Part shown: positions 31,762 through 49,754 of the stretch, one piece after another
How the letters are laid out: each line of letters starts with the position of its first letter
How positions within the stretch are numbered: the stretch's first letter is position 1
From: Candidatus Campbellbacteria bacterium GW2011_OD1_34_28
Lineage (GTDB): Bacteria > Patescibacteriota > Minisyncoccia > Phycocordibacterales > UBA12079
Length of the DNA: 64,000 nt
Reading direction: 5' to 3'
Assembly (NCBI GenBank): GCA_001029775.1
Contig: CP011215.1
Span: 682,303-746,302, forward strand
Made by a program: the position numbers and the translations under genes
The notes under the pieces: model-generated
Database searches by the model: none
What the model was told of the DNA's origin: nothing
Seen by the model: the letters and a program-made list of their open reading frames with translations, nothing else

Positions 31762-31852
31762 GGGGTTAATTATACTAGTTATTTTATAAAGTTCTAACGT
31801 TCAAGACAGGTGGTTTAAGAAAGTATTAGGAAATAAAACTAAGATCATTTGC

Positions 31853-31873: not shown

Positions 31874-32086
31874 CAGGTTTCTAAGCTTTTTACTTCGCCC
31901 TGCCTCTTTTCTGAAAGAAAAGCAACGACACGGCAGACAGGTTCGCTCGTAAAAATCTAAGAACCTTCGGCCCCAGCTCGGAAAAGTGAAAAATTAAATA
32001 AATTTTTCTTTTCCTGCGCTTTTCGAGTCCTAGTCCCTCAACAAAGACGCTATTCCAAAATACCTCAATCGGTATTTTGGATTATC

Positions 32087-32128
32087 GTTGCTGCGGGACT
32101 AGGACTCGAACCTAGATAGGCGGTACCA
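32087..32128. repeat. 39-bp direct repeat identical to the 3' half of the tRNA-Gln gene (attR-like island boundary)
   Basis: ctgcgggactaggactcgaacctagataggcggtaccag is identical to 49684..49722. Confidence 0.8.
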
Positions 32129-32241
32129 GCATTAAAATTGATTTACCCTAATCAGTGTTTGTTTTGTACATTGCTGGCGTCCTTGAGCTAGAACCGTGGT
32201 CGGTCAAGCCCCGTAAGGACATTTTTAATACTTTTATCTTA

Positions 32242-32637
32242 TCATTTCGACGGTCTTTGAGCAGTAGCTTTTTTGTGATCGGGACACCCATCTTTCTTAT
32301 GGTCTAAATATTCAGCCCATGTAATAGATCCTGCATCGGAAACAGTTTTTTCAACTAATTCCAGGTCTTCCTTAGTTAGTTCTCCCTCCTTTTGGTACGG
32401 GCCCCACTCAGACATTTTTTGTATTAAGTGTGCAACGAAATATTGGGGCTTATGATCTTTACCATCGTAGATCCCCAGCAGTTTAAGATTACACGATTCT
32501 ACCTCTGTTTCAGAATGAGTTAAGACAACCGCCAGTGGCGCTTCGGCTGGGCCACCAATAAAAACTATTGGGTGCCACGCTTCGTCAAACGATCTCTTTT
32601 TGCCCCGAAGAATATCTCCCTTTTTGAATTTTTCCAT
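32242..32637 (-). CDS. hypothetical protein, last gene of the repressor-headed operon
   Basis: ORF only. Confidence 0.3.
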   Translation of the reverse strand: MEKFKKGDILRGKKRSFDEAWHPIVFIGGPAEAPLAVVLTHSETEVESCNLKLLGIYDGKDHKPQYFVAHLIQKMSEWGPYQKEGELTKEDLELVEKTVSDAGSITWAEYLDHKKDGCPDHKKATAQRPSK

Positions 32638-32686
32638 ATTTTAATCAATAAAAAGTGACAAAAGTGACACTGGTTCGACTATAAAG

Positions 32687-33433
32687 TTACACTTGCTTGT
32701 TACCTTTGTCTATTAGTTTATCTAGAGCAATCAAGACTGGGTAATTAGGATTATCCAACGTATACCCAAACCAAAAATGGCTATGAATTTTAACCTCTCT
32801 AACAATCTCTCCAAGCTTTTCAATTAGGTCATCTTTTAAGATTAATTGGCTTGCTCCCGCTGGATCTTCTAAGTGCTTATTTTTATGGGCAGCAACTTGA
32901 TGTCTGATTTTATGGAAATGATATTTTTCAAACTTCTCCTTAATTATTTCCAAATCAGCTAATCCCTCCTCCGTTGTTTTGATTACGCGAAATTGGGCCA
33001 TAATATCCCCACGGTTATCTATTGGACCCAAGAAATCGTATTCAGAAAAATCTGGATTAGGGTAATCAATTTTAATTCTTTCAACAAATTGATCAAACAT
33101 CTCAGGATCATCTTTCGAAATCAGACCGCGTTGCATATCTATAACTTCCTCTAGGGCTGGTTTAATTCTAACCTCTTCATCTTTTCTTGAGCAAAGCAGC
33201 GTATGTAAAATACTCACTGCCTCATTAAAGGAGTTGTTTGCAGATAGTAAGAGGAATCGATAGTAATCATGTTTCTCATTTTTATTTACCACTTCTAAAT
33301 AAATCTTTTTACAGGTAAGAAAATTAATATCTGCAAGATATATAAGGGAGACAATATCGTATTTGAATTTAAAAGGGATTTTAGGCATATTTGTATAAAC
33401 CCTAAAATCTTTCCACCAAATCTCTTGATTCAA
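32687..33433 (-). CDS. hypothetical helical protein with a possible HEPN-like Rx5H motif (KIRHQVAAH)
   Basis: Overlaps the upstream effector gene by 32 nt (same operon). Confidence 0.3.
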   Translation of the reverse strand: MNQEIWWKDFRVYTNMPKIPFKFKYDIVSLIYLADINFLTCKKIYLEVVNKNEKHDYYRFLLLSANNSFNEAVSILHTLLCSRKDEEVRIKPALEEVIDMQRGLISKDDPEMFDQFVERIKIDYPNPDFSEYDFLGPIDNRGDIMAQFRVIKTTEEGLADLEIIKEKFEKYHFHKIRHQVAAHKNKHLEDPAGASQLILKDDLIEKLGEIVREVKIHSHFWFGYTLDNPNYPVLIALDKLIDKGNKQV

Positions 33434-34019
33434 AAGCGAGTGTCATTTCACCGCGAGTCTTGCGACTGGTCCAATACTCTCCCTCAAGAGACTTACTCGG
33501 CTTATTTATGATTTTTAAAATTGACGCGCCATCATGGATTGCGCTTCTATCGCGAATGGTAGCCTTAGGTCGATTCGTATAGTTATATGTCAAATAAAGA
33601 TCTTCGCTGTTTGAGGCAACATTTATATCTGCGGTAGTACTGTAGCTCGACGATTCTTTCGTCATCAGTGTGCATTTAATACTTGAAAAAGTTTGTCTGA
33701 TCACCAGAATCATAGGGATTGGATCGATACCTTTTCCTGTTTCTGGATTAATCCAGTCGCTTTTCAGTTCTCCACGCCATGTACCCTGGAGATCTGGAAT
33801 CTTAATGAGCCAGCCTTGGAGAAATTTCCAACGCCACAACCATTTTGTAAAGATGATACCTATGATTGCGTAGATTGAAATCGCTTGAGGTATCAGTTTT
33901 ACTGCCATCCATAAATCAAGAGTTGAATACGTTCTAGTAACAAGAATTACACCAGCCCATATAATTAGGAAAGTGAAAATTTGCGCATGTATTTTAATCG
34001 TGTTATTTATTTTTTCCAT
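33402..34019 (-). CDS. two-TM membrane effector-like protein (Cap15/S-2TM-beta-like) downstream of the CD-NTase
   Basis: Two N-terminal TM helices, then a soluble beta-rich domain; 5-nt gap to the CD-NTase gene. Confidence 0.4.
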   Translation of the reverse strand: MEKINNTIKIHAQIFTFLIIWAGVILVTRTYSTLDLWMAVKLIPQAISIYAIIGIIFTKWLWRWKFLQGWLIKIPDLQGTWRGELKSDWINPETGKGIDPIPMILVIRQTFSSIKCTLMTKESSSYSTTADINVASNSEDLYLTYNYTNRPKATIRDRSAIHDGASILKIINKPSKSLEGEYWTSRKTRGEMTLAFESRDLVERF

Positions 34020-34024
34020 AGTTT

Positions 34025-34915
34025 TTACTCAAATCCAAGATAGTCCCATGCCCTAGAGAAAAAGGAGTGGGCCTTCTCTCGCGTACAAGGTTGATGCGTT
34101 CCGTAAATATTTTTAATATCGTTAACCTCACACAACGTCGCATGTTTTCCGTTTGGTAATGTTTCGTTATGGCAGTGTGCAAGGACAGCACGCACGTCAG
34201 CAGAATATGTATCCCTATTGAAATGGTCATCAGGTGCACTCCAGACCATACTTTGAATCAGAAAGGACGGGATATCTTTTGCCTCGACAATATTTTCTTC
34301 CTGCATCTTATTTCGCAATCTTTTTAGAATCCGAGTTATCTTGCGATACCTTTGGCCAGTTGCCTCATGTTTGTTTTTGCAGTTTTCATAGGTCTGGTGA
34401 GGCCAATTTATTATTTTTGTGCCGTCATCAGCAAGAAAACAAACGCCTTCAGGGTCATGCCATTTGTACCCCGTATCGTAGTAATATCTATATGCTAAAG
34501 CAGGTACGACATCCGCATCTACCCTGTATGAATTTGAATGGATATCAAAAGCCTTGTTCCCACGAGTAACACTTGTCTTCCCAAAATAGTCCTCAAGTGC
34601 TTTTTGAACTAGATTTTTAAATTCAGCAAACGAGATGCTCCCGTCTGAGTTCCCGTAGTCCTCCTTTGATTTTCCTTGGGGGTATCTTGGAAAAAACGTT
34701 GAGTTCAAACATACACAGATATCAACGTCGCTATCATTCTTCACATTGGTTCTCGATTTGTATGAACCTTGAGGAATGATTGATATGTCCATGCTCGACA
34801 ATGTTACGTTCGCCTTTATGGCTTTTTTAACAGCTATCTCAGCGTTCTCCATTTTTTGCTGTTCCGTGACACCAGGAGCACCGCCCCAGGATTTGAATGT
34901 ATCTTCCCAAGCCAT
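34025..34915 (-). CDS. cGAS/DncV-like nucleotidyltransferase (CD-NTase, SMODS-type) of a CBASS-like system
   Basis: Pol-beta NTase motif QGSYKSRTNVKNDSDVDICV (GS...DxD) and third acidic motif RVDADVVPA. Confidence 0.55.
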   Translation of the reverse strand: MAWEDTFKSWGGAPGVTEQQKMENAEIAVKKAIKANVTLSSMDISIIPQGSYKSRTNVKNDSDVDICVCLNSTFFPRYPQGKSKEDYGNSDGSISFAEFKNLVQKALEDYFGKTSVTRGNKAFDIHSNSYRVDADVVPALAYRYYYDTGYKWHDPEGVCFLADDGTKIINWPHQTYENCKNKHEATGQRYRKITRILKRLRNKMQEENIVEAKDIPSFLIQSMVWSAPDDHFNRDTYSADVRAVLAHCHNETLPNGKHATLCEVNDIKNIYGTHQPCTREKAHSFFSRAWDYLGFE

Positions 34916-34918
34916 ATG

Positions 34919-35164
34919 TTAATTCTTTTTATCTCTAGGCGGAAAAGGATCTCGACCAGGCGCAACAGTATCACTGTCTCGGATCGGTCCACCATTTGGT
35001 TTGTGAATTCTAACTTCACCTCCACCAGATTTTGCTGATAAATCTTTCGCTATTTTCTCTGCTTCTCGTTGAGTGTTAGCAGTAGCAGAAGCACGATCAG
35101 CTCCCTCACGCTTTACTCGCCAATCATCAGAACCTTTTGGATTTGTAACATGGTAATTTGCCAT
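34919..35164 (-). CDS. DUF2188-family small protein
   Basis: YHVTNPKGSDDWRVKREGADRAS...EVRIHKPNGGPIRD pattern; 3-nt gap to the CD-NTase start. Confidence 0.5.
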   Translation of the reverse strand: MANYHVTNPKGSDDWRVKREGADRASATANTQREAEKIAKDLSAKSGGGEVRIHKPNGGPIRDSDTVAPGRDPFPPRDKKN

Positions 35165-35170
35165 ATGTGT

Positions 35171-35818
35171 TTAATATAGATCTCCGGGAAGTATCGCAAC
35201 CACTACTCCTTGGATCATACAGTTATCTGTTAATATAATCGGCTTATGGGTTTTATTGCTTGATTTTGGTCTAAGAACAACTACGCCGTCTGCCTTTTCA
35301 AAAATCTTCACGGTTGCCTCGTCATTAATGAGTGCAACCACTTTGTCTCCGTCCAATGCGGTATCTTGCTGACGAATCAGTAAGAGATCACCGCTGTTGA
35401 TACCTGCCTCATTCATCGAGTCGCCGACTGCACGCAGAATGAAATACTTTGAACCCTTTTTTGCCAGACCTGTAGATACTGGGATATAGGTTTGTATATT
35501 TTCTTCGGCAAGCGCTGGCGTACCGCAGGTAACCGCCCCCACAAGTGGAACATCAATCGTACTTACTGAAGCAACCGACTGTGTTCCAATAAGAATGAGC
35601 TGTCTCCCAACTTTTTTTATCAGTCCTGCATCAATCAAGCGATCAACTACAAGGCTTGCTGAACGTGGAGATTTTCCTCCCGTTACTTCGTTTATTTCAC
35701 GAAGTGAGGGGCTTTCACCATAATGGATAATCTTGTTGCGAATAAGGGCAAAAGCTTTTTTGTCTTTGTCACTAAGGTTATTTGTCATGGTATAAGTAGT
35801 ATACAAAACCCTATACAA
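35171..35818 (-). CDS. LexA/CI-like repressor (HTH + S24 peptidase Ser-Lys dyad)
   Basis: N-terminal wHTH (SLREINEVTG); C-terminal S24 domain (AVGDSMNEAGI...GDKVVALINDEATVKIF). Confidence 0.75.
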   Translation of the reverse strand: MYRVLYTTYTMTNNLSDKDKKAFALIRNKIIHYGESPSLREINEVTGGKSPRSASLVVDRLIDAGLIKKVGRQLILIGTQSVASVSTIDVPLVGAVTCGTPALAEENIQTYIPVSTGLAKKGSKYFILRAVGDSMNEAGINSGDLLLIRQQDTALDGDKVVALINDEATVKIFEKADGVVVLRPKSSNKTHKPIILTDNCMIQGVVVAILPGDLY

Positions 35819-35846
35819 AAAAGCAAGTATTTGCTACCATGGAGTT
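35819..35846. promoter_or_regulatory. divergent promoter/operator region with a repeated TATACAAAA motif
   Basis: gtatacaaaaccctatacaaaaaag between the divergent repressor and 35847 genes. Confidence 0.3.
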
Positions 35847-36260
35847 ATGGACTACAAACTCGAGCTAAAACCTTTTGAACGAAAGGACGGCATGAAGTAT
35901 AAAACCATCCAACTAACGGATATTGCGCTTCACACAGCCAAGAAGACCCCTACTCCCTCCGTCGGTAAGAAAGTGCAAAATGCATTCAAGAATGACAAGC
36001 CAGATCGCATTTATTCAAAGCTCGAAAAGACGGCGGTTTCTGATGATAAAGCGTTCACCCTTGATCTGCTAAAAATGGATTCTGATTTTCTAAAAATGGT
36101 TCGAGATGAAGAAGCAAAGGGCTACAAGATTTTAATCGCCCTGCCGAACGAGGGTGTCCCTGTCTTCCCAGGCAAGGACACGGTCGAATTTATGAAAAGT
36201 AAAAACGGCAAGCGGATTATTCGTGGTCTTGCAAAAGAAAAAGCAAGAGATAAAATATAA
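35847..36260 (+). CDS. hypothetical protein transcribed divergently from the repressor (Cro/early-gene position)
   Basis: Position only. Confidence 0.3.
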   Translation: MDYKLELKPFERKDGMKYKTIQLTDIALHTAKKTPTPSVGKKVQNAFKNDKPDRIYSKLEKTAVSDDKAFTLDLLKMDSDFLKMVRDEEAKGYKILIALPNEGVPVFPGKDTVEFMKSKNGKRIIRGLAKEKARDKI

Positions 36261-36425
36261 GTGTTAGATCCTGCGTAGTAAAAAGTAGAATAGTGTATCG
36301 CCTCCAAGCCATGCCTATTCCGCGCAAGAAATAGTTTGAGGTTTTTCGGACCTCTCCCTATTTCGTGTGTGGAGTAGGCTTTTTCTATATCCATACATTT
36401 TATTAAACATAATTAATAAAATGCT

Positions 36426-37700
36426 ATGAAAAAACTTTCATGGACAACAGGAATACGAGAGGTTAAAGACCTATTCCCTTGGAAAGAAAACCCAAGAAAA
36501 ATCTCAAAACAAGCGTTGGATAAATTAAAAGAGAAAATCACGCAAAATGGTTTTCACAGTGTGATCGTAATTGATACAGACAACACGATACTCTCGGGTA
36601 ATCAACGAAAGACGGCACTCACCGAACTTGGTGTGAGTACGGTTAATGTAATGATTCCCAGTCGCAAGCTTACAGATAAGGAGCGACGAAAAATCGGCAT
36701 CGAGAGCAACATCAACGACGGCGAATGGGACTTCGAGAAATTGAAATCTTTTGATTTGGAATTACTTCAATTCGCTGGATTCGACGGGAAAGAACTAGTG
36801 AAATTTTGGGACGAAGAAAAGGATACGAAAGACGATAAGTTCGATGTCGATAAGGAACTCAAGAAGATCAAGACTCCTCAGACCAAGCCAGGTGATCTAA
36901 TAATCATGGGCAACCACAAGCTACTCTGCGCAAGTTCAACTGATATCAACGCCGTTACAAAACTATTCGGCGATGACAGGGCTACTGCTATCTATAGCGA
37001 CCCACCATTCAATATCGGACTCTCATACGATAAGGGTGTTGGCAATAAAAGTAACTATGGTGGGTCTTTCGACGATAACCAATCGGCAGACGAGTATGTG
37101 AATTTTATTCGTAAGGTTATGCAATCGTCCCTTGCAATATCAATTAAGGATATTCATGTCGCGTTCTGGTGTGATGAGGCATGGGTGTGGGTTTTCCAGA
37201 CGTTGTACATGGAACTCGGCATCAAGAACCGAAGACTGAATATCTGGATCAAAAACAATTCATCACCGACCCCAGCCGTGGCATTTTCAAAATGTACGGA
37301 GTTCTGCGTGTATGGAACAAAAGGATTGCCGTACCTGTCCGACCTTATTAAAAATCTTAACGAGATTCAAAACAAGGATTGCACAACGGGTAACCAACTT
37401 CTCGGAGACATCTCAAATATCTGGGCAATCAAACGACTACCATCGAATCAAATGGAACACCCCACAAGCAAAAACCCAGAACTCCACCATAAATTCATAA
37501 TGCGATGCACCAAGCCTGGAGATATCATATTCGATGCCTTTTCAGGATCAGCTAGCACCATGATCTGCGCCGAGCAACTAGACCGCAAAGTGTACTCACT
37601 CGAAATTGAGCCGGTTTTTTGTGACCTGGCGATTCGCAGGTACGAAAAACTAACTGGTCGGAAAGCAACGGTAACCAAAAACTATTATGAAAAAGAATAA
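36426..37700 (+). CDS. ParB-like nuclease domain fused to an N6A/N4C DNA methyltransferase (phage-type orphan MTase)
   Basis: N-terminal ParB/Srx-like domain; motif IV SDPPFN; C-terminal motif I FDAFSGSAST. Confidence 0.7.
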   Translation: MKKLSWTTGIREVKDLFPWKENPRKISKQALDKLKEKITQNGFHSVIVIDTDNTILSGNQRKTALTELGVSTVNVMIPSRKLTDKERRKIGIESNINDGEWDFEKLKSFDLELLQFAGFDGKELVKFWDEEKDTKDDKFDVDKELKKIKTPQTKPGDLIIMGNHKLLCASSTDINAVTKLFGDDRATAIYSDPPFNIGLSYDKGVGNKSNYGGSFDDNQSADEYVNFIRKVMQSSLAISIKDIHVAFWCDEAWVWVFQTLYMELGIKNRRLNIWIKNNSSPTPAVAFSKCTEFCVYGTKGLPYLSDLIKNLNEIQNKDCTTGNQLLGDISNIWAIKRLPSNQMEHPTSKNPELHHKFIMRCTKPGDIIFDAFSGSASTMICAEQLDRKVYSLEIEPVFCDLAIRRYEKLTGRKATVTKNYYEKE

Positions 37701-38103
37701 ATTTCAGGATCAGTTTCTTGCCGAATTAATAAAAATCCCAATTATACAAGTTGCCTGCGAGAAAACAGGGCTATCTCGCAATAGTGTCTATCGGTGGAAA
37801 AAAGAAGATAAGGAATTCTCTAATAAAATGGACGAGGCATACGCCGAGGGTGTCGCTTTGGTAAGCGACATGAGCGAAAGCCAGCTACTTACTCTTATTA
37901 AAGAAAAGAACTACCCAGCTATTAGTTTCTGGCTTCGTCATAGAAATGAAAACTATAAGAACAAGCTAGAAATCACTACTAAGGAAGACGACGAGGAACT
38001 TACACCGTCACAGGCAAAAATCGTGAAGCAAGCACTAAGGCTCGCAAACATCACTAAGTCGAAATCCATTAAAAACATTAATAGATCAAAAAGTCATGAC
38101 TAA
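37687..38103 (+). CDS. HTH protein, probable terminase small subunit
   Basis: Overlaps upstream and downstream genes; HTH (TGLSRNSVYRW); sits immediately before TerL. Confidence 0.4.
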   Translation: MKKNKFQDQFLAELIKIPIIQVACEKTGLSRNSVYRWKKEDKEFSNKMDEAYAEGVALVSDMSESQLLTLIKEKNYPAISFWLRHRNENYKNKLEITTKEDDEELTPSQAKIVKQALRLANITKSKSIKNINRSKSHD

Positions 38104-39580
38104 AATAATTCCAACTGCTCTGGTCAATACTATGATCAAAGACAGGTCCGTGCGTACATCAATCACCAAAGATAGCTTCCTCTACTTCTTCCACTTCTAC
38201 TATGCACACTATGTGAAATACGAAACAGCAGATTTTCAAAAAGAGATTATTCATAATCTCGAAAAAAGTGCTGTTGAAAATCTCTATGTCGTTGCGTTTC
38301 GTGGATCAGGAAAATCAACTATGGTGACAACTGCATACCCAATCTGGGCGATTCTTGGAAAACAACAAAAGAAGTTCTGTATCATTTTTTGTCAGACAAA
38401 AGCCCAGGCAAAACAGCACATGATGAACATCCGATCAGAGCTTGAGGGTAATGATGTTCTCAAAAGGGATCTTGGACCTTTTCAAGAAGAAAGCGATGAA
38501 TGGGGTTCGCACTCTCTTGTGTTCAAAAAGCACGGTGCAAGAATTACTGTCGCTTCGAGTGATCAGAGTATCCGTGGACTTCGTCATAATGAACACCGTC
38601 CCGATCTAATTATCTGTGACGATGTTGAAGATGTACAATCAACAAAGACTCGCGAGGGACGAGACAAGACCTATTACTGGCTTCGTGGTGAAGTTATTCC
38701 TGCAGGTGACAAAACTACCCGACTGATTATCGTTGGTAACTTACTCCACGAAGATTCGCTCCTCATGCGTATCAAAGACGAAATCGCTCAAGGTAAGGCA
38801 AAAGGTACATTCAAGGAATATCCGTTGCTCGATAAAAATGATGTTTGTCTGTGGCCAGGAAAATACAAAGACACAAAAGATGTTGCGGATGAAAAAATGA
38901 AAGTGGCGAGTGAAATTTCATGGCAACGAGAATACTTACTCCGCATCATTCCAAGTGACGGTCAGGTGCTTTACCCAGAATGGTTCTGCTACTACGACGA
39001 ATTGCCTGGAGCAAGTCATATAGCGTATCGTGGTACTTATGCTGGAGTAGACCTTGCAATATCTTCTAAAGATGCGGCGGACTTCACCGCAATAGTTTCT
39101 GCACATGTCTATGGTCGTAGAGAGAAAATGAGAATATATATTCTACCTAATCCGATTTGTCAGAAATTGAACTTCCCAGCACAAGTTGATCTCATGAGAA
39201 ATTTCAAAGCAACACAAATGCCTCGGTACACCGATAAATTCTTTGTTGAAAGCGTTGCATATCAAGAAGCACTACCGCAGATGTTGGAACTGCACGGCAT
39301 CGAAGCGCAATCTGTTAAGCCTAAGGGAGATAAACGAACGAGATTGTCGCTGACTTCGACATCAATCAAGTCTGGAATCATTAAGTTTCCGAGGCATGGG
39401 TGTGAGGATCTTATACGAGAAATGGTTGGATTCGAGATCGAAAAACACGACGATCTTGCTGACGCTTTTTCGCTACTGATAAATGCGACGCTCGATTATC
39501 ACTCACAGGAATCAACTTGGATTATGGCGTTCTTGGGTGGAGACACTATATATTACAGCGACTATGTTGATGTGGGTTAA
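38096..39580 (+). CDS. phage terminase large subunit
   Basis: Walker A VVAFRGSGKST; Walker B-like LIICDDVED; C-terminal RNase H-like nuclease (GVDLAIS...DFTAIV). Confidence 0.75.
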   Translation: MTKIIPTALVNTMIKDRSVRTSITKDSFLYFFHFYYAHYVKYETADFQKEIIHNLEKSAVENLYVVAFRGSGKSTMVTTAYPIWAILGKQQKKFCIIFCQTKAQAKQHMMNIRSELEGNDVLKRDLGPFQEESDEWGSHSLVFKKHGARITVASSDQSIRGLRHNEHRPDLIICDDVEDVQSTKTREGRDKTYYWLRGEVIPAGDKTTRLIIVGNLLHEDSLLMRIKDEIAQGKAKGTFKEYPLLDKNDVCLWPGKYKDTKDVADEKMKVASEISWQREYLLRIIPSDGQVLYPEWFCYYDELPGASHIAYRGTYAGVDLAISSKDAADFTAIVSAHVYGRREKMRIYILPNPICQKLNFPAQVDLMRNFKATQMPRYTDKFFVESVAYQEALPQMLELHGIEAQSVKPKGDKRTRLSLTSTSIKSGIIKFPRHGCEDLIREMVGFEIEKHDDLADAFSLLINATLDYHSQESTWIMAFLGGDTIYYSDYVDVG

Positions 39581-39599
39581 ATATAGCTCGCGAGTATCT

Positions 39600-40202
39600 T
39601 CACTCTTCGTTCTCAATTCTTCTTCTGCGCTCGTCTAGTGTTTCGCCGTCATACATCCAGTAGTCTGTTCCAGCTACTCCGTAATCATAGCCAAGTATCT
39701 TTTGTGCAGAGGTGGAGAGACTGGTTATCTCACCTCCAAACTCAATAGTGTTGTTATCAACGACTTGGGCTTTAATGTTTTCGTCTCGGCTAAATACCAA
39801 TTCGGATCCGACAGGAATATCAACGATACTAAAATTAAATTTCGATCTCCGTGTACGCGCCTGATTCAATGCTTCCTGATCTTCTTTGGACTCAACAAAA
39901 TCTTTTTTCGGAGTAATGTTTTCTATCTCTGCTAATTTAAGGGCGGCCACCACTCGCTCTGGTGAAATATGGAAAAATTCTCTTCTTGGATTTATACGAC
40001 TATCATCAAAAGCGTCGTGTAGTTGCTGTTCAACGAACGTGGCACTATTTACTGTACAGGCGTAAAAACAAGTAAATGGAATAGGGACACTTGTTGAAGA
40101 ACTCAGCTCTCGAATTCGTTGTTCTAAACTCGTGGAAGTTTTACCTATCTTTACATAACCAGGCATCGCCTCGTTTATGAGGATATAAATTATTTCGTTC
40201 AT
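39600..40202 (-). CDS. GIY-YIG nuclease superfamily protein (T5orf172/MUG113-like)
   Basis: N-terminus YILINEAMPGYVKIGKT...R.R... Confidence 0.55.
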   Translation of the reverse strand: MNEIIYILINEAMPGYVKIGKTSTSLEQRIRELSSSTSVPIPFTCFYACTVNSATFVEQQLHDAFDDSRINPRREFFHISPERVVAALKLAEIENITPKKDFVESKEDQEALNQARTRRSKFNFSIVDIPVGSELVFSRDENIKAQVVDNNTIEFGGEITSLSTSAQKILGYDYGVAGTDYWMYDGETLDERRRRIENEE

Positions 40203-40330
40203 GTTGTTGGTTCGGTTTTCTAATAATTAGGTGGCCAGATACACAAAAATCCCGCCACCAGAAGGAGACCTTTCGATCATCCCTACCTAAGTTTCCCTAG
40301 GTAACCGAACCAACGACCCTGATGACGGGG
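40203..40330. repeat. structured inverted-repeat region upstream of the serine recombinase (candidate recombination site)
   Basis: ttgttggttcggtt ... aaccgaaccaacg inverted pair flanking ggtggcc...gccacc, plus a third ttggttcgg copy. Confidence 0.35.
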
Positions 40331-40554
40331 TTTTTACGTTGGTTCGGATTTGCAACCATATCCTTTGGAAAACCAAAGGGGTTAGGTCGACTGATATTCA
40401 GTTGTAAATTAATAATAACATTTTCGACTTTATTATTCTAGATTGATTGTATCGCTGATACATGATTTTGCTAAGACTCTATATACGACCATGCTACGTA
40501 TCTCTAGTTCTGCATAGTCTATGCACCACCAACTGGTCTGTCATCAATATATGT

Positions 40555-41874
40555 ATGGAGACGCAGTATATAAATAATCTAGGTGTTAAGACCGAAGTGC
40601 CACGCATAAAGGTTCGTTACGTCCTGTATGCTCGTAAATCAACCGAATCAGACGAGAAGCAAGCTTTGTCGATTGAATCGCAAGTAAAAGAAATGTTATC
40701 AATCGCAGATCGTGACGGTCTTGAAGTTGTAGACATTAGACGAGAATCACACTCAGCAAAAGAATCGGGACAGCGACCAGTCTTCAAGGAGTTATTGGAA
40801 GACTTGAGACGAGGCAGGTATACAGGAATACTTACTTGGGCACCAGATCGTCTCTCTCGTAATGCAGGAGATCTTGGATCAGTCGTCGATCTTATGGATG
40901 AAAATAAGCTGATAGAGATCAGAACGTACGGACAACATTTCAAAAATTCACCAAACGAAAAATTCTTATTAATGATTCTTTGTTCTCAGGCAAAGTTAGA
41001 GAACGACAACAAAAGTATTAATGTGAAGCGTGGACTACGAACACGGTGCGAAATGGGATTACGGCCAGGTCCTGCCGTTGTTGGATATCTCAACGAAAAG
41101 CATTTAGATAAAAAGTGCCAAGTTGTTATCGACCCTGAACGAGCGCCTATAGTCAAACAGATATTTGAAAAAGTAGCGCATGAAAAATGGTCAGGGAGAA
41201 AGATATTTCATTGGCTCAAATTCGACCTGAATTTTAAGACACGAAGTGGCAACAAGGGGCTTACCCTAAGCAACATTTATCTCATACTCGAAAACCCTAT
41301 TTACTACGGAGTTTTCGAGTATCCGAGGAAAAGTGGAAATTTCTATACAGGAAAGCATGAACCGATTATCTCTAAAGAGCTTTTTGATCAAGTCCAAGAG
41401 CAAGTAAAAAGTCAGGTGTTACGAGTACAGGAACCGAAAGAATTTGCTTTCACCAAAATGATGACTTGTGGCTTATGCGGGTCTGGCATCTGTGCGGATG
41501 AGAAATTTAAGAAACTCAAAGACGGGTCAGTGAACAGGCACATCTACTACGGCTGTACAAAGTCCAAAGACAAGTACTGTAAGTGTGGGTACACAAACGA
41601 AATTGAGTTAATAGGGCAATTTGAAAAACTGCTTGATCGAATCAGCATTAGCGAAATCGGAATGAAAGAGAAGATCAAATACGAGGTTGAACGAATAAAG
41701 AAGTTTCAGCAATCAGTTTTGAACATCAAGCAACAAATCCAAATAAAAGACGTAGACATAAGAGATTATGCCAAATTTATTTTAAAAGAAGGGTCAATCG
41801 AAGAAAAGCGAGAATTGCTAACTTGTTTTAAGAGTAAAATTTTATTGAAAGACAAAACTATTTCTCTCGGTTAA
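40555..41874 (+). CDS. large serine recombinase (resolvase/invertase N-domain + recombinase domain + zinc ribbon)
   Basis: YARKSTESDEKQ...SIESQ catalytic Ser region; recombinase domain; Cys cluster. Start placed at the internal ATG at 40555. Confidence 0.8.
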   Translation: METQYINNLGVKTEVPRIKVRYVLYARKSTESDEKQALSIESQVKEMLSIADRDGLEVVDIRRESHSAKESGQRPVFKELLEDLRRGRYTGILTWAPDRLSRNAGDLGSVVDLMDENKLIEIRTYGQHFKNSPNEKFLLMILCSQAKLENDNKSINVKRGLRTRCEMGLRPGPAVVGYLNEKHLDKKCQVVIDPERAPIVKQIFEKVAHEKWSGRKIFHWLKFDLNFKTRSGNKGLTLSNIYLILENPIYYGVFEYPRKSGNFYTGKHEPIISKELFDQVQEQVKSQVLRVQEPKEFAFTKMMTCGLCGSGICADEKFKKLKDGSVNRHIYYGCTKSKDKYCKCGYTNEIELIGQFEKLLDRISISEIGMKEKIKYEVERIKKFQQSVLNIKQQIQIKDVDIRDYAKFILKEGSIEEKRELLTCFKSKILLKDKTISLG

Positions 41875-41880
41875 TAACCT

Positions 41881-44800
41881 TTATTCATAAAACTTACCGC
41901 CAGAAATATCAAAGAATTTCTCAAAGAAACTCGTCAGCTTATCTATAACACTTTCACGTTTTTGAGTACGTTCACCAGTTGGAGAAAAGCGAGATACTGG
42001 TGGTAAAACTTTTGTAATAGCGGTACCAGTCGTTGCGATGCTTCCATCACGGAACGCGTTTTTTATAAACGTGACAGTCTCATCATGATCAAGATTTTCA
42101 CTAGTGATAATTTGCTCAAGTTCTTCAATCTTTTTCTTATCAACAAACTTCTGCCAATCGTCATCCACCATTGAATGAACATCAAGGGAGGTTATAAACT
42201 GATTGATGAGATCCTTTTTATTGCGTAATTCAATACTAGAATCTATCGCCTTATTAATATCAAGTAATAACTCACGATTTTTGATGTGGTCTTCGTGATA
42301 TTTTTTGATAAGTCCTAGGACATAATCAATATTGATTTCTATCTGCTTGATAAGCTCCATTTCAAACACCAGATCATCATTGATGTTCTCCTTAACGTCC
42401 TCTATTGTCTTGCGAAAGTCGTTGTAGAGATCAATATATATACTGTGATAATCCTGAATATCACGCTCAGTTAAAATCTCATTACCTGCAAACTCGTCAA
42501 ATGTCGTGAGAATATTACGCACTCGCAGAATTGCACTGTATAGTTTAATAAAATCTTTTTGACTTTGCTCGCCAACAATCCGCTGTCCCACAGGAAATTT
42601 TTCCAGAAGTTCGGCTACCAAACTCGCATATCCTCGAACTTCTTTCTCGTTATCTTTATATCCGTTGTAATACTCTGCGTACGATTTCAAAAGCACAATA
42701 CCACTAGCTTCTTTATCGCCAAAGAGTGCAATTGATTCATTGGTCGCTTTCTCTAAGTTACGGAAACAAACGATATTTCCAAAAGTTTTGACGCTATTTA
42801 GGATACGATTCGTTCGTGAAAATGCTTGAAGAAGACCATGTAATCGAAGATTTTTATCTACCCATAATGTATTGAGTGTCGTAGCATCAAAACCTGTCAA
42901 AAACATATTGACCACAATCAAAACATCAACTTCACGATCTTTTACACGCTGGCTGACATCCTTATAATAATTCTGGAATTTATCAGATGAAGTATCATAG
43001 GAAGTCCCAAACATTGTATTGTAATCCTTGATGGCACTCTCCAAGAAATCTCGCGAACTCACATCTAGCCCACTTGTATCTTCTGAATTTTCATCAATCA
43101 TTCCGTCTGCGTCCTCGTCATTTACACCAAAACTAAAAATGGTTGCGACTTTGAGCCGTTTATCGCTAGGCACTTCCGCAAGTTGTTTTTTAAATTCAGC
43201 ATAGTACTTTTTAGCAACATCAATTGATGAGACTGCAAAAATGGAATTGAACCCAGCCAATCTTCGGTCCTTTATTTTATAGAAACTATTACGCTTTGTT
43301 TTTTGATCAAAATGTTCACGAATGTATCCAACAATATTCGCTAGACGTTCTGGTGAAGCAAGTACAGCTTCGCGGTCAATATCACTGACTTTTTTGTCTT
43401 CAATGTTCTCAGCTTCGCGAACAGTAGAAACGTAGTCAACCTTGAACGGTAGAACATTTTTGTCGGCAATCGCATCAACGATAGTATAAGTGTGTAATTT
43501 TTCACCAAAAGCTTGCTCTGTTGTCTTCAAGTCTGGTCTACCCCCAGAAGATGCGTTAATAGCAAAAATTGGAGTACCAGTAAAACCAAAGAGGTGGTAA
43601 TTCTTGAAAGCTTTTATAATGCCTGCGTGCATATCACCAAATTGTGAGCGATGACACTCATCAAAAATAAGCACAACATGACCATCTAAAATAGCATGTT
43701 CATTATTGCGTCCAATGAAGCGATCCAGCTTCTGAATAGTTGTGATGATTATGCGTGCGTTCGGATTTTCGAGCTGCTTCTTCAATATCGCCGTAGAAGT
43801 ATTGCTATTTGCTGAACCCTTCTCAAACTTGTCGTATTCTCGCATTGTCTGGTAGTCCAAATCCTTACGATCTACAACAAACACGACCTTATCTACATAA
43901 GGCAACTTACTGACTAACTGCGCCGTCTTGAAACTGGTCAAGGTTTTTCCTGATCCAGTCGTGTGCCAGATATATCCACCAGCCTCTACTGTTCCAAGCT
44001 TCTTGTAGTTTGTGCTAACTTCGATTCGACTTAATATCCGTTCGGTAGCTACTATCTGATATGGTCGCATTACCAACAACAGATGATCGGTAGTAAATAC
44101 ACAGTACCGAGTTAAAATATTCAAAAGTGCATGTTTCGCAAAAAATGTCTTAGCGAAATCCATTACGTCTGTAATCGGTTGATTGGTAGCATCTGCCCAC
44201 CAACTAGTGAACTCAAAACTATTGCCTGTACGCTTACCCTTTTTCGCACCGCCCTCGTTAGATTCTTTAATATGCTGAGACCTTGTGGTGTTGCTGTAAT
44301 ATTTTGTATGCGTGCCATTTGAAATGACAAACAATTGAACATATTCAAAAAGCCCACTTGATGCCCAAAAACTCTCACGCTGATAGCGGTTAATTTGATT
44401 GAATGCTTCGGCAATCGCTACACCTCGGCGCTTAAGTTCAATGTGTACTAAAGGTAATCCATTCACCAACACAGTTACATCGTAACGATTGGCGCGCTGA
44501 CCATCTTCTGTCGCATACTGGTTTATTACTTGCAGACTATTGTCATGAATGTTGTCTTTTTTTATAAGATAAATATTTTTTATGGTACCGTCGTCGCGCG
44601 TTAGATTCTTGATGTGATCTTCTTGAATAGTTGTAGTTTTTTCTTCAATACTTTGATTTGGGTTAGCAAGCTCGCCCACAAAGAAATGTTCCCATTCGGT
44701 ATCAGAAAAGGTAACCTCGTTGAGTTTCTCTAGCTGTTGTCGTAGATTCAAGACCAAATCATTTTCGGAGGTTAGCTTCAGGTATTCATACGCTTGTGTT

Positions 44801-44940
44801 TCAAGTTGCTGAATAAAAGCACGTTCCAATTCTGCTTCGCTTTGGTAATGAGTCGCACGCTTTGCATCAGGAGTGTACTGCGACACCACTGTGCTTTGTG
44901 AATTTTCGGCGACCAAATTGTATTTGTTGTTATTTTGCAT
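41881..44940 (-). CDS. hsdR: type I restriction enzyme R subunit
   Basis: 1019 aa; N-terminal nuclease; SF2 helicase motifs (TGSGKTLTSF, DECHRS); overlaps the hsdS stop. Confidence 0.9.
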   Translation of the reverse strand: MQNNNKYNLVAENSQSTVVSQYTPDAKRATHYQSEAELERAFIQQLETQAYEYLKLTSENDLVLNLRQQLEKLNEVTFSDTEWEHFFVGELANPNQSIEEKTTTIQEDHIKNLTRDDGTIKNIYLIKKDNIHDNSLQVINQYATEDGQRANRYDVTVLVNGLPLVHIELKRRGVAIAEAFNQINRYQRESFWASSGLFEYVQLFVISNGTHTKYYSNTTRSQHIKESNEGGAKKGKRTGNSFEFTSWWADATNQPITDVMDFAKTFFAKHALLNILTRYCVFTTDHLLLVMRPYQIVATERILSRIEVSTNYKKLGTVEAGGYIWHTTGSGKTLTSFKTAQLVSKLPYVDKVVFVVDRKDLDYQTMREYDKFEKGSANSNTSTAILKKQLENPNARIIITTIQKLDRFIGRNNEHAILDGHVVLIFDECHRSQFGDMHAGIIKAFKNYHLFGFTGTPIFAINASSGGRPDLKTTEQAFGEKLHTYTIVDAIADKNVLPFKVDYVSTVREAENIEDKKVSDIDREAVLASPERLANIVGYIREHFDQKTKRNSFYKIKDRRLAGFNSIFAVSSIDVAKKYYAEFKKQLAEVPSDKRLKVATIFSFGVNDEDADGMIDENSEDTSGLDVSSRDFLESAIKDYNTMFGTSYDTSSDKFQNYYKDVSQRVKDREVDVLIVVNMFLTGFDATTLNTLWVDKNLRLHGLLQAFSRTNRILNSVKTFGNIVCFRNLEKATNESIALFGDKEASGIVLLKSYAEYYNGYKDNEKEVRGYASLVAELLEKFPVGQRIVGEQSQKDFIKLYSAILRVRNILTTFDEFAGNEILTERDIQDYHSIYIDLYNDFRKTIEDVKENINDDLVFEMELIKQIEINIDYVLGLIKKYHEDHIKNRELLLDINKAIDSSIELRNKKDLINQFITSLDVHSMVDDDWQKFVDKKKIEELEQIITSENLDHDETVTFIKNAFRDGSIATTGTAITKVLPPVSRFSPTGERTQKRESVIDKLTSFFEKFFDISGGKFYE

Positions 44941-46180
44941 ATTCGGGAAATGTTAAAAGCTTGCTTCGGTAGTATTCGTATTGAGATCTGCGAGCTTTGA
45001 GTTCAGCTGGCAGACCGATAGAAATATCGTTCACGAGAGCATCGAATTTATCTAAAACTGTTACGATTTGTTCTTGTTCGGCGATAGGTGGAACTGGGAT
45101 TTTAATTTTTTTTAATTCTGCCATCGGAATACTCATAACAGGAGATCCAACAATTTTATTTTCAATTTGCTTTTTTGCAATTATAGAATTAAGGAAGAAT
45201 AACAAAAATTTTGAATCTACGACTTTTTGATTCGGTTTGATTACATATACACCCTCTTTTATGTTCCAATTCTTCGGTTTCTCTTTCACTAAAGCAGTTC
45301 TACCGATTGTTCCTGTTCCAGAAAACAAAACGTCGCCAACTTCCAGATTGGATCTATTATTTATCAATCTTAACGCTTCGTCATTTACCCTGTCAGTCTT
45401 TTCAAAAAATGTTACATTTAAGCCGTTTATTTCACGAACCGTAACATAGTAATTATTCGCGTCCTGAGTATTCAAAACAAAGTTTTTACGTGGATTCAAA
45501 CCTGTTTTAAGTGATAAAATAATATCACCCAATGTTTCCTCTCTAACTTTTTCATCAAATATAAATAGTCCAGAGCGATAATACTCATATTGCTTCTTCC
45601 TAGCTTCTAGCTCAGCTTCTAGCTCAGCTTCTAGCTCAGTAAAACTATTAAGAATAGTGACAATTTCTTCTTGGATTGCAAGGGGTGGGAGAGGGATTTT
45701 GAATTTCTTGACTTCATTATCTGAAATTGCTGGATAGCTGGCACCTTTCTGTGTTGCCTCTACGTAATCACAAAATTCAGATGAGCCAATCAGATGAAAA
45801 ACAAAATCAGTCAAAATTACACTGGTGTCTGGACGCAACACACAAAAACCAGTACTACAAATTTGTCCATCATATTGGGCTCCGATTACACAAAATCGTT
45901 TGAGTGTTGGCCTCGTTGTACCAAAAATAACATCACCCTTCCTAACTATTTTTTGTGCACGACTAGGTGCTGTGTCTGAATCTACCGTCTGTACTTCTGA
46001 AATAGCGTGTGTCACCCTATCTACAGATGATAAATCGATATACTGAAATGTTTTCCCGACATTATTTTGCCAATTTATATTCGAGGTCGGTTCACAGACC
46101 TTACCTAACTCCTTAAACTCAACCCCTTTAGGACAGAGTTGGGCAATCAACTTTTCAATTTTGCTTTGGTGTTTGGACAT
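44930..46180 (-). CDS. hsdS: type I restriction-modification specificity subunit (two TRDs)
   Basis: Duplicated TRD architecture with a central conserved region containing the ELEAELEAELEA repeat. Confidence 0.85.
   Translation of the reverse strand: MSKHQSKIEKLIAQLCPKGVEFKELGKVCEPTSNINWQNNVGKTFQYIDLSSVDRVTHAISEVQTVDSDTAPSRAQKIVRKGDVIFGTTRPTLKRFCVIGAQYDGQICSTGFCVLRPDTSVILTDFVFHLIGSSEFCDYVEATQKGASYPAISDNEVKKFKIPLPPLAIQEEIVTILNSFTELEAELEAELEARKKQYEYYRSGLFIFDEKVREETLGDIILSLKTGLNPRKNFVLNTQDANNYYVTVREINGLNVTFFEKTDRVNDEALRLINNRSNLEVGDVLFSGTGTIGRTALVKEKPKNWNIKEGVYVIKPNQKVVDSKFLLFFLNSIIAKKQIENKIVGSPVMSIPMAELKKIKIPVPPIAEQEQIVTVLDKFDALVNDISIGLPAELKARRSQYEYYRSKLLTFPEYAK
45603..45638. repeat. 12-bp tandem repeat x3 (agcttctagctc) in the hsdS central conserved region
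   Basis: Perfect 3 copies, in frame, encoding ELEA repeats. Confidence 0.8.
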
Positions 46181-46181
46181 A

Positions 46182-47729
46182 TTAAATTTGGCTAATTTTT
46201 ACCAGCAAAACATTGTAATGATACAAACTTAACTGCTTTTTTATATTTCTATAATTTATAATGCTGAAAAAGGGCAATTTTAAATCATCTTTACTTGTGC
46301 CTATAGCATAAACAATTGTGTACTCGGATGGATTTGGGTCACTCTCCAAGACTACGCTTTTATGAGAATTAATAAGTTTTGAATTGACTTCTTTTCTGAA
46401 TGATTTGTCTGTAAGCAACAAATCAGCGGATACCAGTCCCTGACTAAATAAATGGCTTAGTACGGCACTTGCCCCGTATTTCTTCACATGCACTAGGTGT
46501 TTATCAGACCTAACAAGATCAGCAAATTCAATTTTGCCTTTTCCTATCAAGTTAGTTTGACTTACACCACCATCAAGACACTGATAAGCAGTGTCATTCG
46601 TTGCAACTTTATTATTGTAAATATTTTCGTGATCATTCTTATCCCAGTCTGGCAAAGCAAAGGTCGCATCTACACGATACTCACTCTCAATCTTATTTTT
46701 GTAAGTCGCGTCTACTTTGTAATATTTACCAGCTACTAATAAATATTTCTCACTGTTGGAGTCGATTTCAGCATATAAACATTTATATATTGACCATTCT
46801 TTTATGAACTGATCATTGGTATCTACTTGTTGCACTTTTTTACTTTTGAGCAAATCTACTGTGATATTCGTCTTCTCGTCATCAGTCAACGAATCCTTAA
46901 AATCATCAAAAATGATATCCTGATATTCTGTAGCATTATTTCTGGCGCTATATTTAAAACATTTTGTATTTTCCCATTCAATAACTTCGGGGATTGCGAG
47001 CCAACAAATTACATCGGTCTTACTATCATCATTTATTTTTGAAACAATCTTATTATCTAAATCAGTTACCACCTTTTTATCGTTAACGGCAGAAAAATTA
47101 TCAAACCAATCAAATCTCTCTTTGTATTTATTGGAAATGTATGCCTTGTATAGCTCAAGAAGTACGTCATTAACCTCATCAACATTCCTTTTGATAGATA
47201 TACTAATTGCATCCTTTCCTATAACATTCTTTCCATACAATTCCTGATCCTCTGGTTCACCAACAACAGCCCTCATAATGTCCTGCTCAATATCAAAACC
47301 AAAATCTGCAACCGTTCCAATTCTACCGAGCTGTTCCGAAACATCTTTTAGTCCATTTTTAAAATTCTTTTTTTCAATTTTCTTTACTTCGCTTTTAATG
47401 ACACTAAGAGCTGTTTTGATTCCAAATTGCTCAACTATTACACCATCTTTGAACATTTGCCACCCATGACCGAAAGATAAACCGAAGTAAATGTCTTTAC
47501 TGTTATATTTTGTTTTTGTTATATATAGCCCCGAAGCAGTAGAATTCTTTAGATCTTCGATATTCTTATTGAAAAAATTATCTGTCCATGCTGGCTTTTT
47601 TGAAAATGATTTTTTGTAGTATAAGACCCCATTGTCAAAAATCTCATTCGTACTTACGTCCTTAACGACATCACTATGGTCTGTGATATTATCCTTAATC
47701 AAATAAATTGAGAGTTTTTGATTTTTCAT
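46182..47729 (-). CDS. uncharacterized 515-529-aa protein embedded between hsdM and hsdS (candidate R-M-associated defense gene)
   Basis: Translationally coupled both ways (4-nt gap after the hsdM stop, 1-nt gap to the hsdS start). No P-loop and no obvious catalytic motif. Confidence 0.4.
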   Translation of the reverse strand: MKNQKLSIYLIKDNITDHSDVVKDVSTNEIFDNGVLYYKKSFSKKPAWTDNFFNKNIEDLKNSTASGLYITKTKYNSKDIYFGLSFGHGWQMFKDGVIVEQFGIKTALSVIKSEVKKIEKKNFKNGLKDVSEQLGRIGTVADFGFDIEQDIMRAVVGEPEDQELYGKNVIGKDAISISIKRNVDEVNDVLLELYKAYISNKYKERFDWFDNFSAVNDKKVVTDLDNKIVSKINDDSKTDVICWLAIPEVIEWENTKCFKYSARNNATEYQDIIFDDFKDSLTDDEKTNITVDLLKSKKVQQVDTNDQFIKEWSIYKCLYAEIDSNSEKYLLVAGKYYKVDATYKNKIESEYRVDATFALPDWDKNDHENIYNNKVATNDTAYQCLDGGVSQTNLIGKGKIEFADLVRSDKHLVHVKKYGASAVLSHLFSQGLVSADLLLTDKSFRKEVNSKLINSHKSVVLESDPNPSEYTIVYAIGTSKDDLKLPFFSIINYRNIKKQLSLYHYNVLLVKISQI

Positions 47730-47733
47730 AACA

Positions 47734-49680: not shown

Positions 49681-49754
49681 TGGCTGCGGGACTAGGACTC
49701 GAACCTAGATAGGCGGTACCAGAAACCGCAGTCCTACCATTAGACGATCCCGCA
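49681..49754 (-). tRNA. tRNA-Gln (anticodon CUG), CCA encoded
   Basis: Cloverleaf by hand: U1-A72, G73 discriminator (GlnRS identity), anticodon loop UUCUGGU, T-loop UUCGAGU. Its 3' half is repeated at 32090. Confidence 0.85.

Follow-up and report, generated by a model that had tools for sequence, protein, structure and literature searches.

The operon described here lies in a 64,000-nt stretch of DNA (the window) from Candidatus Campbellbacteria bacterium GW2011_OD1_34_28 (assembly GCA_001029775.1, contig CP011215.1, positions 682,303-746,302 of the forward strand). Based on our analyses, it probably carries a type I cyclic oligonucleotide-based antiphage signaling system (CBASS), consisting of a CdnE cyclase and a Cap15 effector, as cargo on an element integrated at a tRNA-Gln gene and headed by its own S24 repressor. 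According to the same reading, the two remaining genes that at first seemed to extend this system, encoding a HEPN-like and a MazF-fold protein, are not parts of the CBASS. The host is a bacterium of the candidate phyla radiation (CPR), as the first-pass annotation, made from the sequence of the window, had surmised. That annotation had also called the host background unusual for such a module, which does not agree with the dense defence systems already reported for CPR genomes (PMC12259885).

The operon comprises six co-directional open reading frames (ORFs) on the minus strand, at 35171-35818, 34919-35164, 34025-34915, 33402-34019, 32687-33433 and 32242-32637. All six ORFs are present as first listed, but the gaps of -32 to +6 nt originally given for them need to be corrected. 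The fifth ORF, of 248 aa, was read from a TTG start codon, and on that reading it runs 32 nt into the gene before it. Its homologues in the databases, 43 in number, have approximately 233 aa and begin at the equivalent of an internal ATG at 33388, and a second gene caller also gives, on identical contigs, a 233-aa gene from this ATG. Because the true start is ATG 33388, the overlap is an artefact and the gap between the Cap15 and HEPN-like genes is 13 nt. The corrected gaps along the operon are 6, 3, 5, 13 and 49 nt, the last of which separates the HEPN-like gene from the 131-aa gene and contains a conserved non-coding motif.

The third gene (34025..34915, minus strand) encodes a CD-NTase of 296 aa, the CBASS cyclase. 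It matched the PADLOC cyclase model PDLC00801 at 9e-119, and a precomputed match to Pfam CD_NTase_C is available for identical or near-identical copies. All five sequence matches in the PDB are CdnE proteins (7x4f, 7x4c, 7x4a, 6e0m and 6e0k, including EfCdnE and ClCdnE), the best being 7x4f, a cyclic dipyrimidine nucleotide synthase (1.8e-72). The gene had initially been read as a cGAS/DncV-like nucleotidyltransferase from its GS...DVD and VDADVVP motifs, and these motifs (GSY..DSDVD and VDADVVP) do align with the catalytic motifs of 7x4f. From these nearest solved structures, we predict that the cyclase belongs to the CdnE clade. A search with CdnE against GenBank phages gave no match.

The effector gene (33402..34019, minus strand) begins 5 nt downstream of the cyclase gene and encodes 205 aa. 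Two hydrophobic windows, at approximately residues 8-30 and 38-58, correspond to two transmembrane (TM) helices and are followed by a cyclic-dinucleotide receptor beta-barrel at residues 73-194, which matched Pfam Cap15_CD_rec with 85 bits (cutoff 31.2). The protein also matched the PADLOC 2TM effector model over its full length (1e-80) and, at 4.9e-6, the solved Cap15 structure (PDB 7n34), to which its Cap15 domain is only distantly similar. The proposal of two TM helices plus a beta-rich domain, as in Cap15-type effectors, was therefore sound. Using Pfam, PADLOC, NCBIfam and PHROGs, no match to the ancillary genes of type II (Cap2/Cap3), type III (HORMA/TRIP13) or type IV (QueC/TGT/OGG) CBASS was found in the six operon proteins or their neighbours. 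Since a cyclase and an adjacent receptor effector are present and the ancillary Cap2, Cap3, HORMA and TRIP13 genes are absent, the core of the locus is classified, by gene content, as an ordinary type I CBASS of two genes. As in known type I CdnE-Cap15 systems, the CD-NTase gene is directly followed by the gene for a 2TM protein with a beta-barrel receptor, the GS/DxD/D catalytic motifs are kept, and there are no ancillary genes. The window module differs from these systems in having a same-strand S24 repressor and a DUF2188 gene at its head, and in its place in the cargo slot of an integrative element from a CPR bacterium.

The boundaries of this element were found as a perfect 40-nt direct repeat at 32090-32129 and 49683-49722, where none is expected by chance. 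An intact tRNA-Gln(CTG) gene (49681..49754, minus strand, ARAGORN) contains the second copy as its 3' 40 nt, and the first, an exact copy of this part of the tRNA gene, marks the other end of the island. The two attachment (att) repeats delimit 17.6 kb with all six operon genes inside, and the GC content rises from approximately 0.30 to approximately 0.40 at 32 kb. No capsid, portal or tail genes were found between the att repeats with Pfam and PHROGs. The module had been described as lying under a prophage repressor; while the element is mobile and phage-related, the word prophage is too strong for an island that has no virion structural genes, and the island is a satellite-like or cryptic element rather than a complete prophage.

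The first gene of the operon encodes a repressor of 205 aa (35171..35788, minus strand) that is of the S24/LexA type and putatively autoproteolytic. Its ORF is open back to a TTG at 35818, and the most likely start is the ATG at 35788: this ATG and its upstream sequence are conserved in a related locus (L022), and database copies as well as another gene caller give a protein of 205 aa. The protein matched Pfam Peptidase_S24 over its full length at 7e-28, LexA_DNA_bind above the cutoff with 23.9 bits, and NCBIfam TIGR00498 (lexA) with 136 bits (cutoff 111). The translation contains a GDSM serine, a TVK lysine and a loop, VTCGTP, that resembles a C-G cleavage site. From these features we predict an S24 peptidase with a Ser-Lys dyad, a cleavage loop and an N-terminal DNA-binding domain, able to cleave itself. 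The gene is on the same strand as the DUF2188 gene and 6 nt upstream of it, and with its S24 and LexA domains it bears out the earlier reading of a CI/LexA-like repressor at the head of the operon.

The score above the NCBIfam equivalog cutoff, together with database copies that are named 'repressor LexA', would also fit a housekeeping SOS LexA of the host, in which case the downstream genes would merely be located in a chromosomal lexA operon. This explanation is highly improbable given where the gene lies, inside an att-bounded and GC-shifted island, and given how it varies. The repressors at the equivalent position in other lineages reach only 30-76% identity, and that of L038 has another type of N-terminal domain, while CdnE is 85-96% identical; furthermore, copies of the repressor that are at least 90% identical occur in other CPR lineages such as Taylorbacteria. 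We therefore continue to treat the repressor as belonging to the mobile module.

A divergent regulatory region of 58 nt (35789..35846), which contains a candidate operator and promoter, separates the repressor operon from a plus-strand gene of 137 aa. Within it, TAGCAAATACTTGCT, which has AGCA..TGCT arms, overlaps a -35-like hexamer (TTGCTT). The ATG is preceded, at a distance of 9 nt, by a TATACT hexamer, and TTTTGTATA forms a direct repeat. L022 has retained both the AGCA..TGCT arms and the block from TATACT to the ATG.

The arrangement of the module was examined across lineages. The order S24-DUF2188-CdnE-Cap15 was found in five, namely the window, Parcubacteria LiPW_30 (L038), L021, L022 and a contig from IMG/VR (L049). 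The S24 repressor is at most 16 nt upstream and on the same strand in five of the six CBASS lineages with CdnE 85-96% identical. In the sixth (L008-L013), DUF2188-CdnE-Cap15 is present without an S24 gene, and 410 nt of non-coding DNA is found instead. Since the four-gene order is found in five lineages and its last three genes in a sixth, the arrangement is more than chance. The S24 gene is absent from sister elements with other cargo, which indicates that the repressor travels with the CBASS unit and not with the backbone of the element. The module is a mosaic, as can be seen from the 30-76% identity of the repressor and the 36-96% identity of DUF2188 between CBASS-bearing lineages. The recurrence of the S24-headed unit in five lineages suggests a LexA-type way of regulating CBASS.

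The module occupies a slot in which other cargo is also found. All six genes of the operon are present in the same order in LiPW_30, and in L038, L041-L043 and L045 the backbone genes are retained while the cargo beside them differs. The slot contains Hachiman HamA/HamB in L041 (4680-7963), a histidine phosphatase with a dCMP-type deaminase and ASCH in L042 (6590-7964), and a PDC-M36A-like gene with three unknown genes in L043 (2613-6301). The contents of the slot in these three sister elements are candidates for new defence systems.

The second gene (34919..35164, minus strand) encodes a DUF2188 protein of 81 aa. The presence of this family in the operon, already listed from the sequence, was confirmed by matches to Pfam PF09954 (73.4 bits, cutoff 22) and to the PADLOC candidate PDC-S16 (3e-18). 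In each lineage whose DNA ahead of CdnE can be seen, a DUF2188 gene precedes CdnE by 2-4 nt. The family is not restricted to the CdnE-Cap15 system. In L018, a DUF2188 copy that is 63% identical to that of the window heads an unrelated operon with a 294-aa gene (202-1339), and a Vibrio plasmid CdnE (44% identity) has no DUF2188. The idea that DUF2188 always precedes a nucleotidyltransferase was rejected, since the 294-aa gene that follows it in L018 is unrelated to CdnE. In the literature, DUF2188 is described adjoining a Pseudomonas CBASS and in a Thoeris island, and CapH/CapP are also found with DUF2188-containing operons, including cyclase operons (bioRxiv 10.1101/2022.04.27.489752).

DUF2188 was also seen in temperate phages. 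In Streptococcus phages (Javan570, L051 3492-6343) it is part of the lysogeny module, on the same strand as a CI-like repressor and an integrase, an arrangement that echoes the adjacency of repressor and DUF2188 in the window. In the Mycobacterium phage prophiT48-1 (L052 2258-3192), a DUF2188-like segment makes up the C-terminal part of a 197-aa annotated antitoxin, whose gene is just downstream of a BrnT-like toxin gene. This fusion hints that DUF2188 may act in toxin neutralisation.

The fifth gene (32687..33388, minus strand) encodes the all-helical protein of 233 aa for which the 248-aa ORF had been listed with a possible Rx5H HEPN-like motif. Scans with Pfam, PADLOC and NCBIfam gave no sequence-level family match, and with 81 cluster representatives in a set of 1.84 billion proteins the family is a small one. 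The motif itself is well supported. RHQxxAHK, which contains the Rx5H motif (RHQVAAH in the window), and LLSANNxF are invariant in 29 homologues. The arginine and histidine, R162-x5-H168, are invariant in these 29 sequences, and across 56 distant members the histidine is invariant and the arginine at least 90% conserved. The AlphaFold model is confident (pLDDT 85.6) and all-helical, and the protein carries an insertion of approximately 55 residues relative to shorter family members.

Links to named families were found at low scores. Eight of the 56 distant members match Pfam HEPN_AbiU2 below threshold (14-16 bits, cutoff 26.8); the window protein itself has no match to this family. An hhalign comparison of the 233-aa family with one true AbiU2 protein aligned the R..H motif in a weak match (E 0.035, probability 1.4%). 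A homologue search from the true AbiU2 protein of L048 returned only the query itself, a sequence-profile search of the 233-aa family against the PDB found nothing, and a Foldseek search of the model against the PDB found nothing significant. Scans of viral contigs for the HEPN and MazF-fold families found neither. With moderate confidence, we describe the 233-aa protein as HEPN-like and nearest to AbiU2. Restriction-modification (R-M) operons are known to harbour genes of AbiU2 and of many further HEPN families (Anantharaman et al. 2013, PMC3710099). The window family shares with them an Rx4-6H motif, an all-helical structure and the insertion of its genes in type I and type III R-M and other defence loci. 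It differs from them in having no above-threshold Pfam HEPN match, and its RNase activity is a prediction.

The contexts of the HEPN-like gene change with its similarity to the window copy. Genes that are 78-95% identical follow Cap15 at 13-16 nt (the window, L038, L020, L021, L022 and L008-L013). A relative that is 69% identical ends another cargo operon, with a 159-aa gene and an MBL-fold gene, in the same element family. Relatives at 43-53% identity are found between an N6 methylase and a specificity subunit, between an SNF2 helicase and a type III methylase/ResIII, together with a true AbiU2 gene inside a type I R-M operon, and beside RhuM/Fic or Bro-N. In a PADLOC scan of 97 neighbours of HEPN homologues, type III R-M was enriched among the best 25 matches listed, a list taken up by redundant methylase models. 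The absence of cyclases from such neighbourhoods rests on tblastn with CdnE and Cap15 and on per-gene Pfam tables. As a separate observation, L048 (1536-9664, Candidatus Woesearchaeota) is an archaeal type I R-M operon with a true AbiU2 HEPN gene, a member of the 233-aa family and a Bro-N/Fic gene.

With a GC content of 0.34, compared with 0.39-0.43 for the other five operon genes, the HEPN-like gene fits a separate acquisition. The IMG/VR copy of the CBASS (L049) is without it. Because of this absence, the lower GC content and the R-M or other contexts of the 43-69% relatives, the gene appears to be independent of CBASS; these contexts are unlike those of a CBASS-specific part, and the gene does not look like an extra component. 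The first-pass annotation had suggested that it could be one, and we found it beside CBASS only in one close lineage, that of the 78-95% identical copies.

We also weighed a reading in which all six genes form one extended CBASS variant, in which the CdnE signal would act on the HEPN-like and 131-aa proteins as additional effectors or regulators. The short distance between Cap15 and the HEPN-like gene in the window, L038, L020-L022 and L008-L013 would be expected in such a variant, as would the six-gene order kept in LiPW_30, and HEPN RNases do serve as effectors in other nucleotide-signalling systems (Csm6/Csx1). However, neither protein has a recognisable cyclic-nucleotide sensor domain, all co-occurrences are in one lineage (CdnE 85-96% identical), and L049 has a CBASS with neither gene. 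The R-M and other contexts of the 43-69% HEPN relatives speak against this reading as well, as does the 131-aa gene, which closes operons with Hachiman or other cargo. We consider an extended CBASS very unlikely. The co-occurrence of the two genes with CD-NTases holds in the sister copies of the same island lineage and dissolves outside it.

A different kind of coupling can be imagined for the HEPN-like protein. As a PrrC-like second-line guard, it would be held inactive by the system that surrounds it, R-M or in the window CBASS, until a phage neutralises that system, and so would be coupled to its neighbours without being specific to CBASS. This model was proposed by Anantharaman et al. for R-M-embedded HEPN families including AbiU2 (PMC3710099), and the family is always found within or at the end of defence operons (hsdM-hsdS, SNF2 helicase-type III methylase, after Cap15). 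Its partners, ranging from R-M enzymes to a membrane effector, are too diverse for an easy common inhibitory contact, and some copies are beside non-defence or unknown genes. On this evidence a guard role is conceivable but doubtful, and we retain the reading of an independent gene that was acquired by the operon.

The last gene of the cargo operon (32242..32637, minus strand) encodes a protein of 131 aa with the SH3-like barrel fold of MazF/CcdB, assigned at the level of fold. Searches against Pfam, NCBIfam, PADLOC and the PDB gave no sequence-family match. Both this protein and the 233-aa protein had been described as having no recognisable family; this stands for both at the sequence level but not at the level of fold, where the 131-aa protein is MazF/CcdB-like. 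An hhalign comparison with an approximate sequence of E. coli MazF gave a probability of 4.8%. The N-terminal GD(I/V)L, xP(I/V)V and LT(H) motifs appear to resemble the GD..RP..T pattern of MazF. Invariant or nearly invariant residues of the family are GD, HP, T40, C49-N50, H70, K74, W78, C118 and H121, which would fit a functional barrel in which Cys and His residues may bind a metal. Compared with MazF, PemK, Kid and CcdB, the 131-aa protein has an extra C-terminal helical extension and conserved Cys/His residues. Its gene also differs from theirs in being fixed at the end of a cargo operon and in having no sequence match and no conserved antitoxin gene upstream, where the neighbouring gene is different in every element.

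The distribution of the 131-aa gene follows the element. It comes after the same CBASS-HEPN block in LiPW_30 (L038), ends operons of other cargo in three CPR genomes that share the serine recombinase, TerS-like gene and ParB-methylase of the backbone (L041, L042 and L043) and is absent from three CBASS-bearing lineages. Because it closes Hachiman and other cargo operons and is missing from these three lineages, we assign it, from its distribution, to the element backbone and not to CBASS. Its earlier interpretation as a possible further CBASS component is not supported. Elsewhere, in L018 (4819-7193), a MazF-fold homologue is directly upstream of a SIR2-TPR gene.

Two non-coding features flank the 131-aa gene. 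A tandem 9-mer, GTCACTTTT GTCACTTTT (motif GTCACTTTTGTCACTTTT), is located at 32651..32668 on the minus strand, in the 49-nt gap, and marks the boundary at the 3' end of the variable cargo. Exact copies of it are present in 11 other loci (L008, L009, L010, L012, L020, L021, L038 and L041-L044). In each it is at the end of the cargo operon, with or without a MazF-like gene after it, and it is kept despite differing flanking genes. The tandem 9-mer may serve as an operator or promoter, or it may mark where recombination takes place. The second feature is a conserved non-coding tail of approximately 100 nt (32130..32265, minus strand; CWCGAGA..GTCGA ... CCTTRCRGGGC ... CTCGA..GGC), which comes after the motif or the MazF-like gene and aligns across eight loci (the window, L008, L009, L021, L038 and L041-L043). 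The window copy of the MazF-like ORF no longer has the usual stop codon and extends eight codons into the tail. RNAalifold found no supported structure in the tail and Rfam no match, and the idea of a structured RNA was dropped on the RNAalifold result. We suspect that the tail is protein-binding DNA or an att arm.

The 131-aa gene, the tandem 9-mer and the tail might together work as an addiction module similar to toxin-antitoxin systems, in which the antitoxin may be an RNA, and so stabilise the island. The lack of an adjacent conserved protein antitoxin gene would suit an RNA antitoxin, and the non-coding sequences on either side of the gene are conserved, compared with only 52-60% identity in the protein. 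Yet the known type III antitoxins have much longer repeats than these 2 x 9 nt, RNAalifold supported no structure for the tail, and searches at sequence level did not match the protein to MazF or PemK families. Moreover, the motif and the tail are also found in elements that have no MazF-like gene (L008, L009 and L021). An addiction module of this kind is unlikely, and assignment of the 131-aa gene to the element backbone remains our preferred reading.

Taken together, the gene assignments enabled a proposal for how the locus might work. A single transcription unit would comprise the module's own S24/LexA-type repressor, DUF2188, CdnE, Cap15, the separately acquired HEPN-like gene, the boundary motif and the MazF-fold gene of the backbone. 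The repressor would bind the 58-nt divergent region and regulate its own expression, so that a quiescent element would express the operon only at a low basal level. RecA on single-stranded DNA, formed upon DNA damage or phage replication, would stimulate Ser-Lys self-cleavage of the repressor and raise expression, perhaps also that of the divergent backbone genes. On infection, CdnE would make a cyclic dinucleotide, probably one containing a pyrimidine. The Cap15 beta-barrel would bind this dinucleotide, and its two TM helices would oligomerise and breach the membrane in an abortive infection. The HEPN-like protein may be an independent Rx5H RNase-type toxin or a second-line effector that rides in many defence operons, and the MazF-fold protein may be an element-maintenance or toxin gene product.

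DNA damage is already known to act on CBASS through the CapH/CapP repressors (Lau et al. 2022, bioRxiv 10.1101/2022.04.27.489752; PMC9122588). Our full-text literature search for CBASS with LexA or a repressor found only WYL-domain regulators (CapW/BrxR-type) and metallopeptidase-repressor pairs (PprI/ImmR-type, as CapH/CapP). The window operon shares with both a dedicated repressor at its head, and a proteolytic, DNA-damage-linked removal of the repressor would be expected. In contrast to these systems, it has a single S24 LexA-type protein rather than a WYL protein or a pair of helix-turn-helix (HTH) protein and Zn-metallopeptidase, and its repressor gene is the co-directional first gene of the operon, whereas CapH/CapP are on the opposite strand. 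No metallopeptidase or HTH_3-type pair of the CapH/CapP kind was found in the window operon.

In the cI-rexA-rexB operon of phage lambda, one transcript carries an S24 repressor gene and, behind it, a membrane-acting abortive-infection system that excludes other phages. The window operon resembles it as a repressor-headed abortive-infection system on a resident mobile element. It differs in that the cargo is CBASS and not Rex, the repressor has a LexA-type winged helix instead of a lambda-type HTH, and the element is without virion structural genes.

Several observations weigh against a CBASS that is controlled by its own repressor on a single mobile element, with the HEPN-like gene as a bystander. 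Co-transcription of the six genes is predicted only from their spacing and orientation, and the 49-nt gap with its conserved motif could contain an internal promoter or terminator. The candidate operator, TAGCA-N6-TGCT, is unique in the window, yet it is not statistically distinguishable from chance. The repressor is not obligatory for the module, because the L008-L013 lineage has no S24 gene. In six CBASS-bearing sequences the HEPN-like gene is 13-16 nt after Cap15, and a functional link may exist in this lineage. Finally, two elements may have been combined in the island, because serine integrases do not usually leave an att repeat as long as 40 nt and the integrase gene is located mid-island.

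A more far-reaching reading is offered tentatively, as a possibility that we think falls short of likely. In it, S24-DUF2188-CdnE-Cap15 would be a self-contained, horizontally mobile unit that combines a third class of CBASS regulator next to CapW/BrxR and CapH/CapP, LexA-type, autoproteolytic and RecA-responsive, with DUF2188 as a functional accessory and not a bystander, in a swappable slot of CPR serine-integrase, satellite-like elements that have so far not been described. DUF2188 would act as a sensor, a regulator or an antitoxin-like brake, and the slot would be bounded by the tandem 9-mer and closed by the MazF-fold gene.

The core system is a textbook CBASS, and nothing fundamental changes in that respect. 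What is new is the context, namely the recurrent S24-headed CBASS unit, the defence-cargo slot of CPR elements and two small toxin-like families. The candidate LexA-type switch on CBASS, seen in five lineages and two element backbones, has a single-protein design that is easy to test. If true, it would extend the wiring of abortive-infection systems to DNA-damage sensing. The slot, which alternates between CBASS, Hachiman, deaminase-type and unknown cargo, can serve as a guide to new defence genes in uncultured organisms. The two uncharacterised families, the AbiU2-like Rx5H protein and the Cys/His-bearing MazF-fold protein, come with testable toxin hypotheses.

The rest of the island was annotated from Pfam domains and PHROGs. 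The element backbone (35847..41874, plus strand) comprises the 137-aa gene, a ParB_N-N6/N4 DNA methylase, a TerS-like HTH protein, a TerL-like protein, T5orf172 (on the minus strand) and a large serine recombinase. PHROGs matches were obtained to the terminase large subunit (1.5e-76), terminase small subunit (3e-08) and integrase (3.4e-62). This backbone may represent a family of CPR phage-satellite-like elements. A TerL-like gene is missing from the corresponding position in L038 and L041-L043. A type I R-M operon with hsdM, DUF6119, hsdS and hsdR (41881..49320, minus strand, Pfam) takes up the remainder of the island up to tRNA-Gln. Its 529-aa DUF6119 gene, inserted between hsdM and hsdS, is a further uncharacterised gene embedded in an R-M operon.

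No empty integration site was found in sister genomes, as the island is present in each of the 24 contigs whose YceG is identical. A tmRNA or tRNA suspected near 32 kb was rejected, the sequence being the att copy of the tRNA-Gln 3' end, and an Rfam scan of 31.5-36.5 kb returned only chance matches of microRNA models on a long hairpin. Just outside the island there is a further 21-nt att copy at 31849-31869 and an inverted copy at 32025-32044, and att copies form a hairpin of approximately 90 nt at 32022-32110. The extra copies suggest repeated integration at tRNA-Gln.

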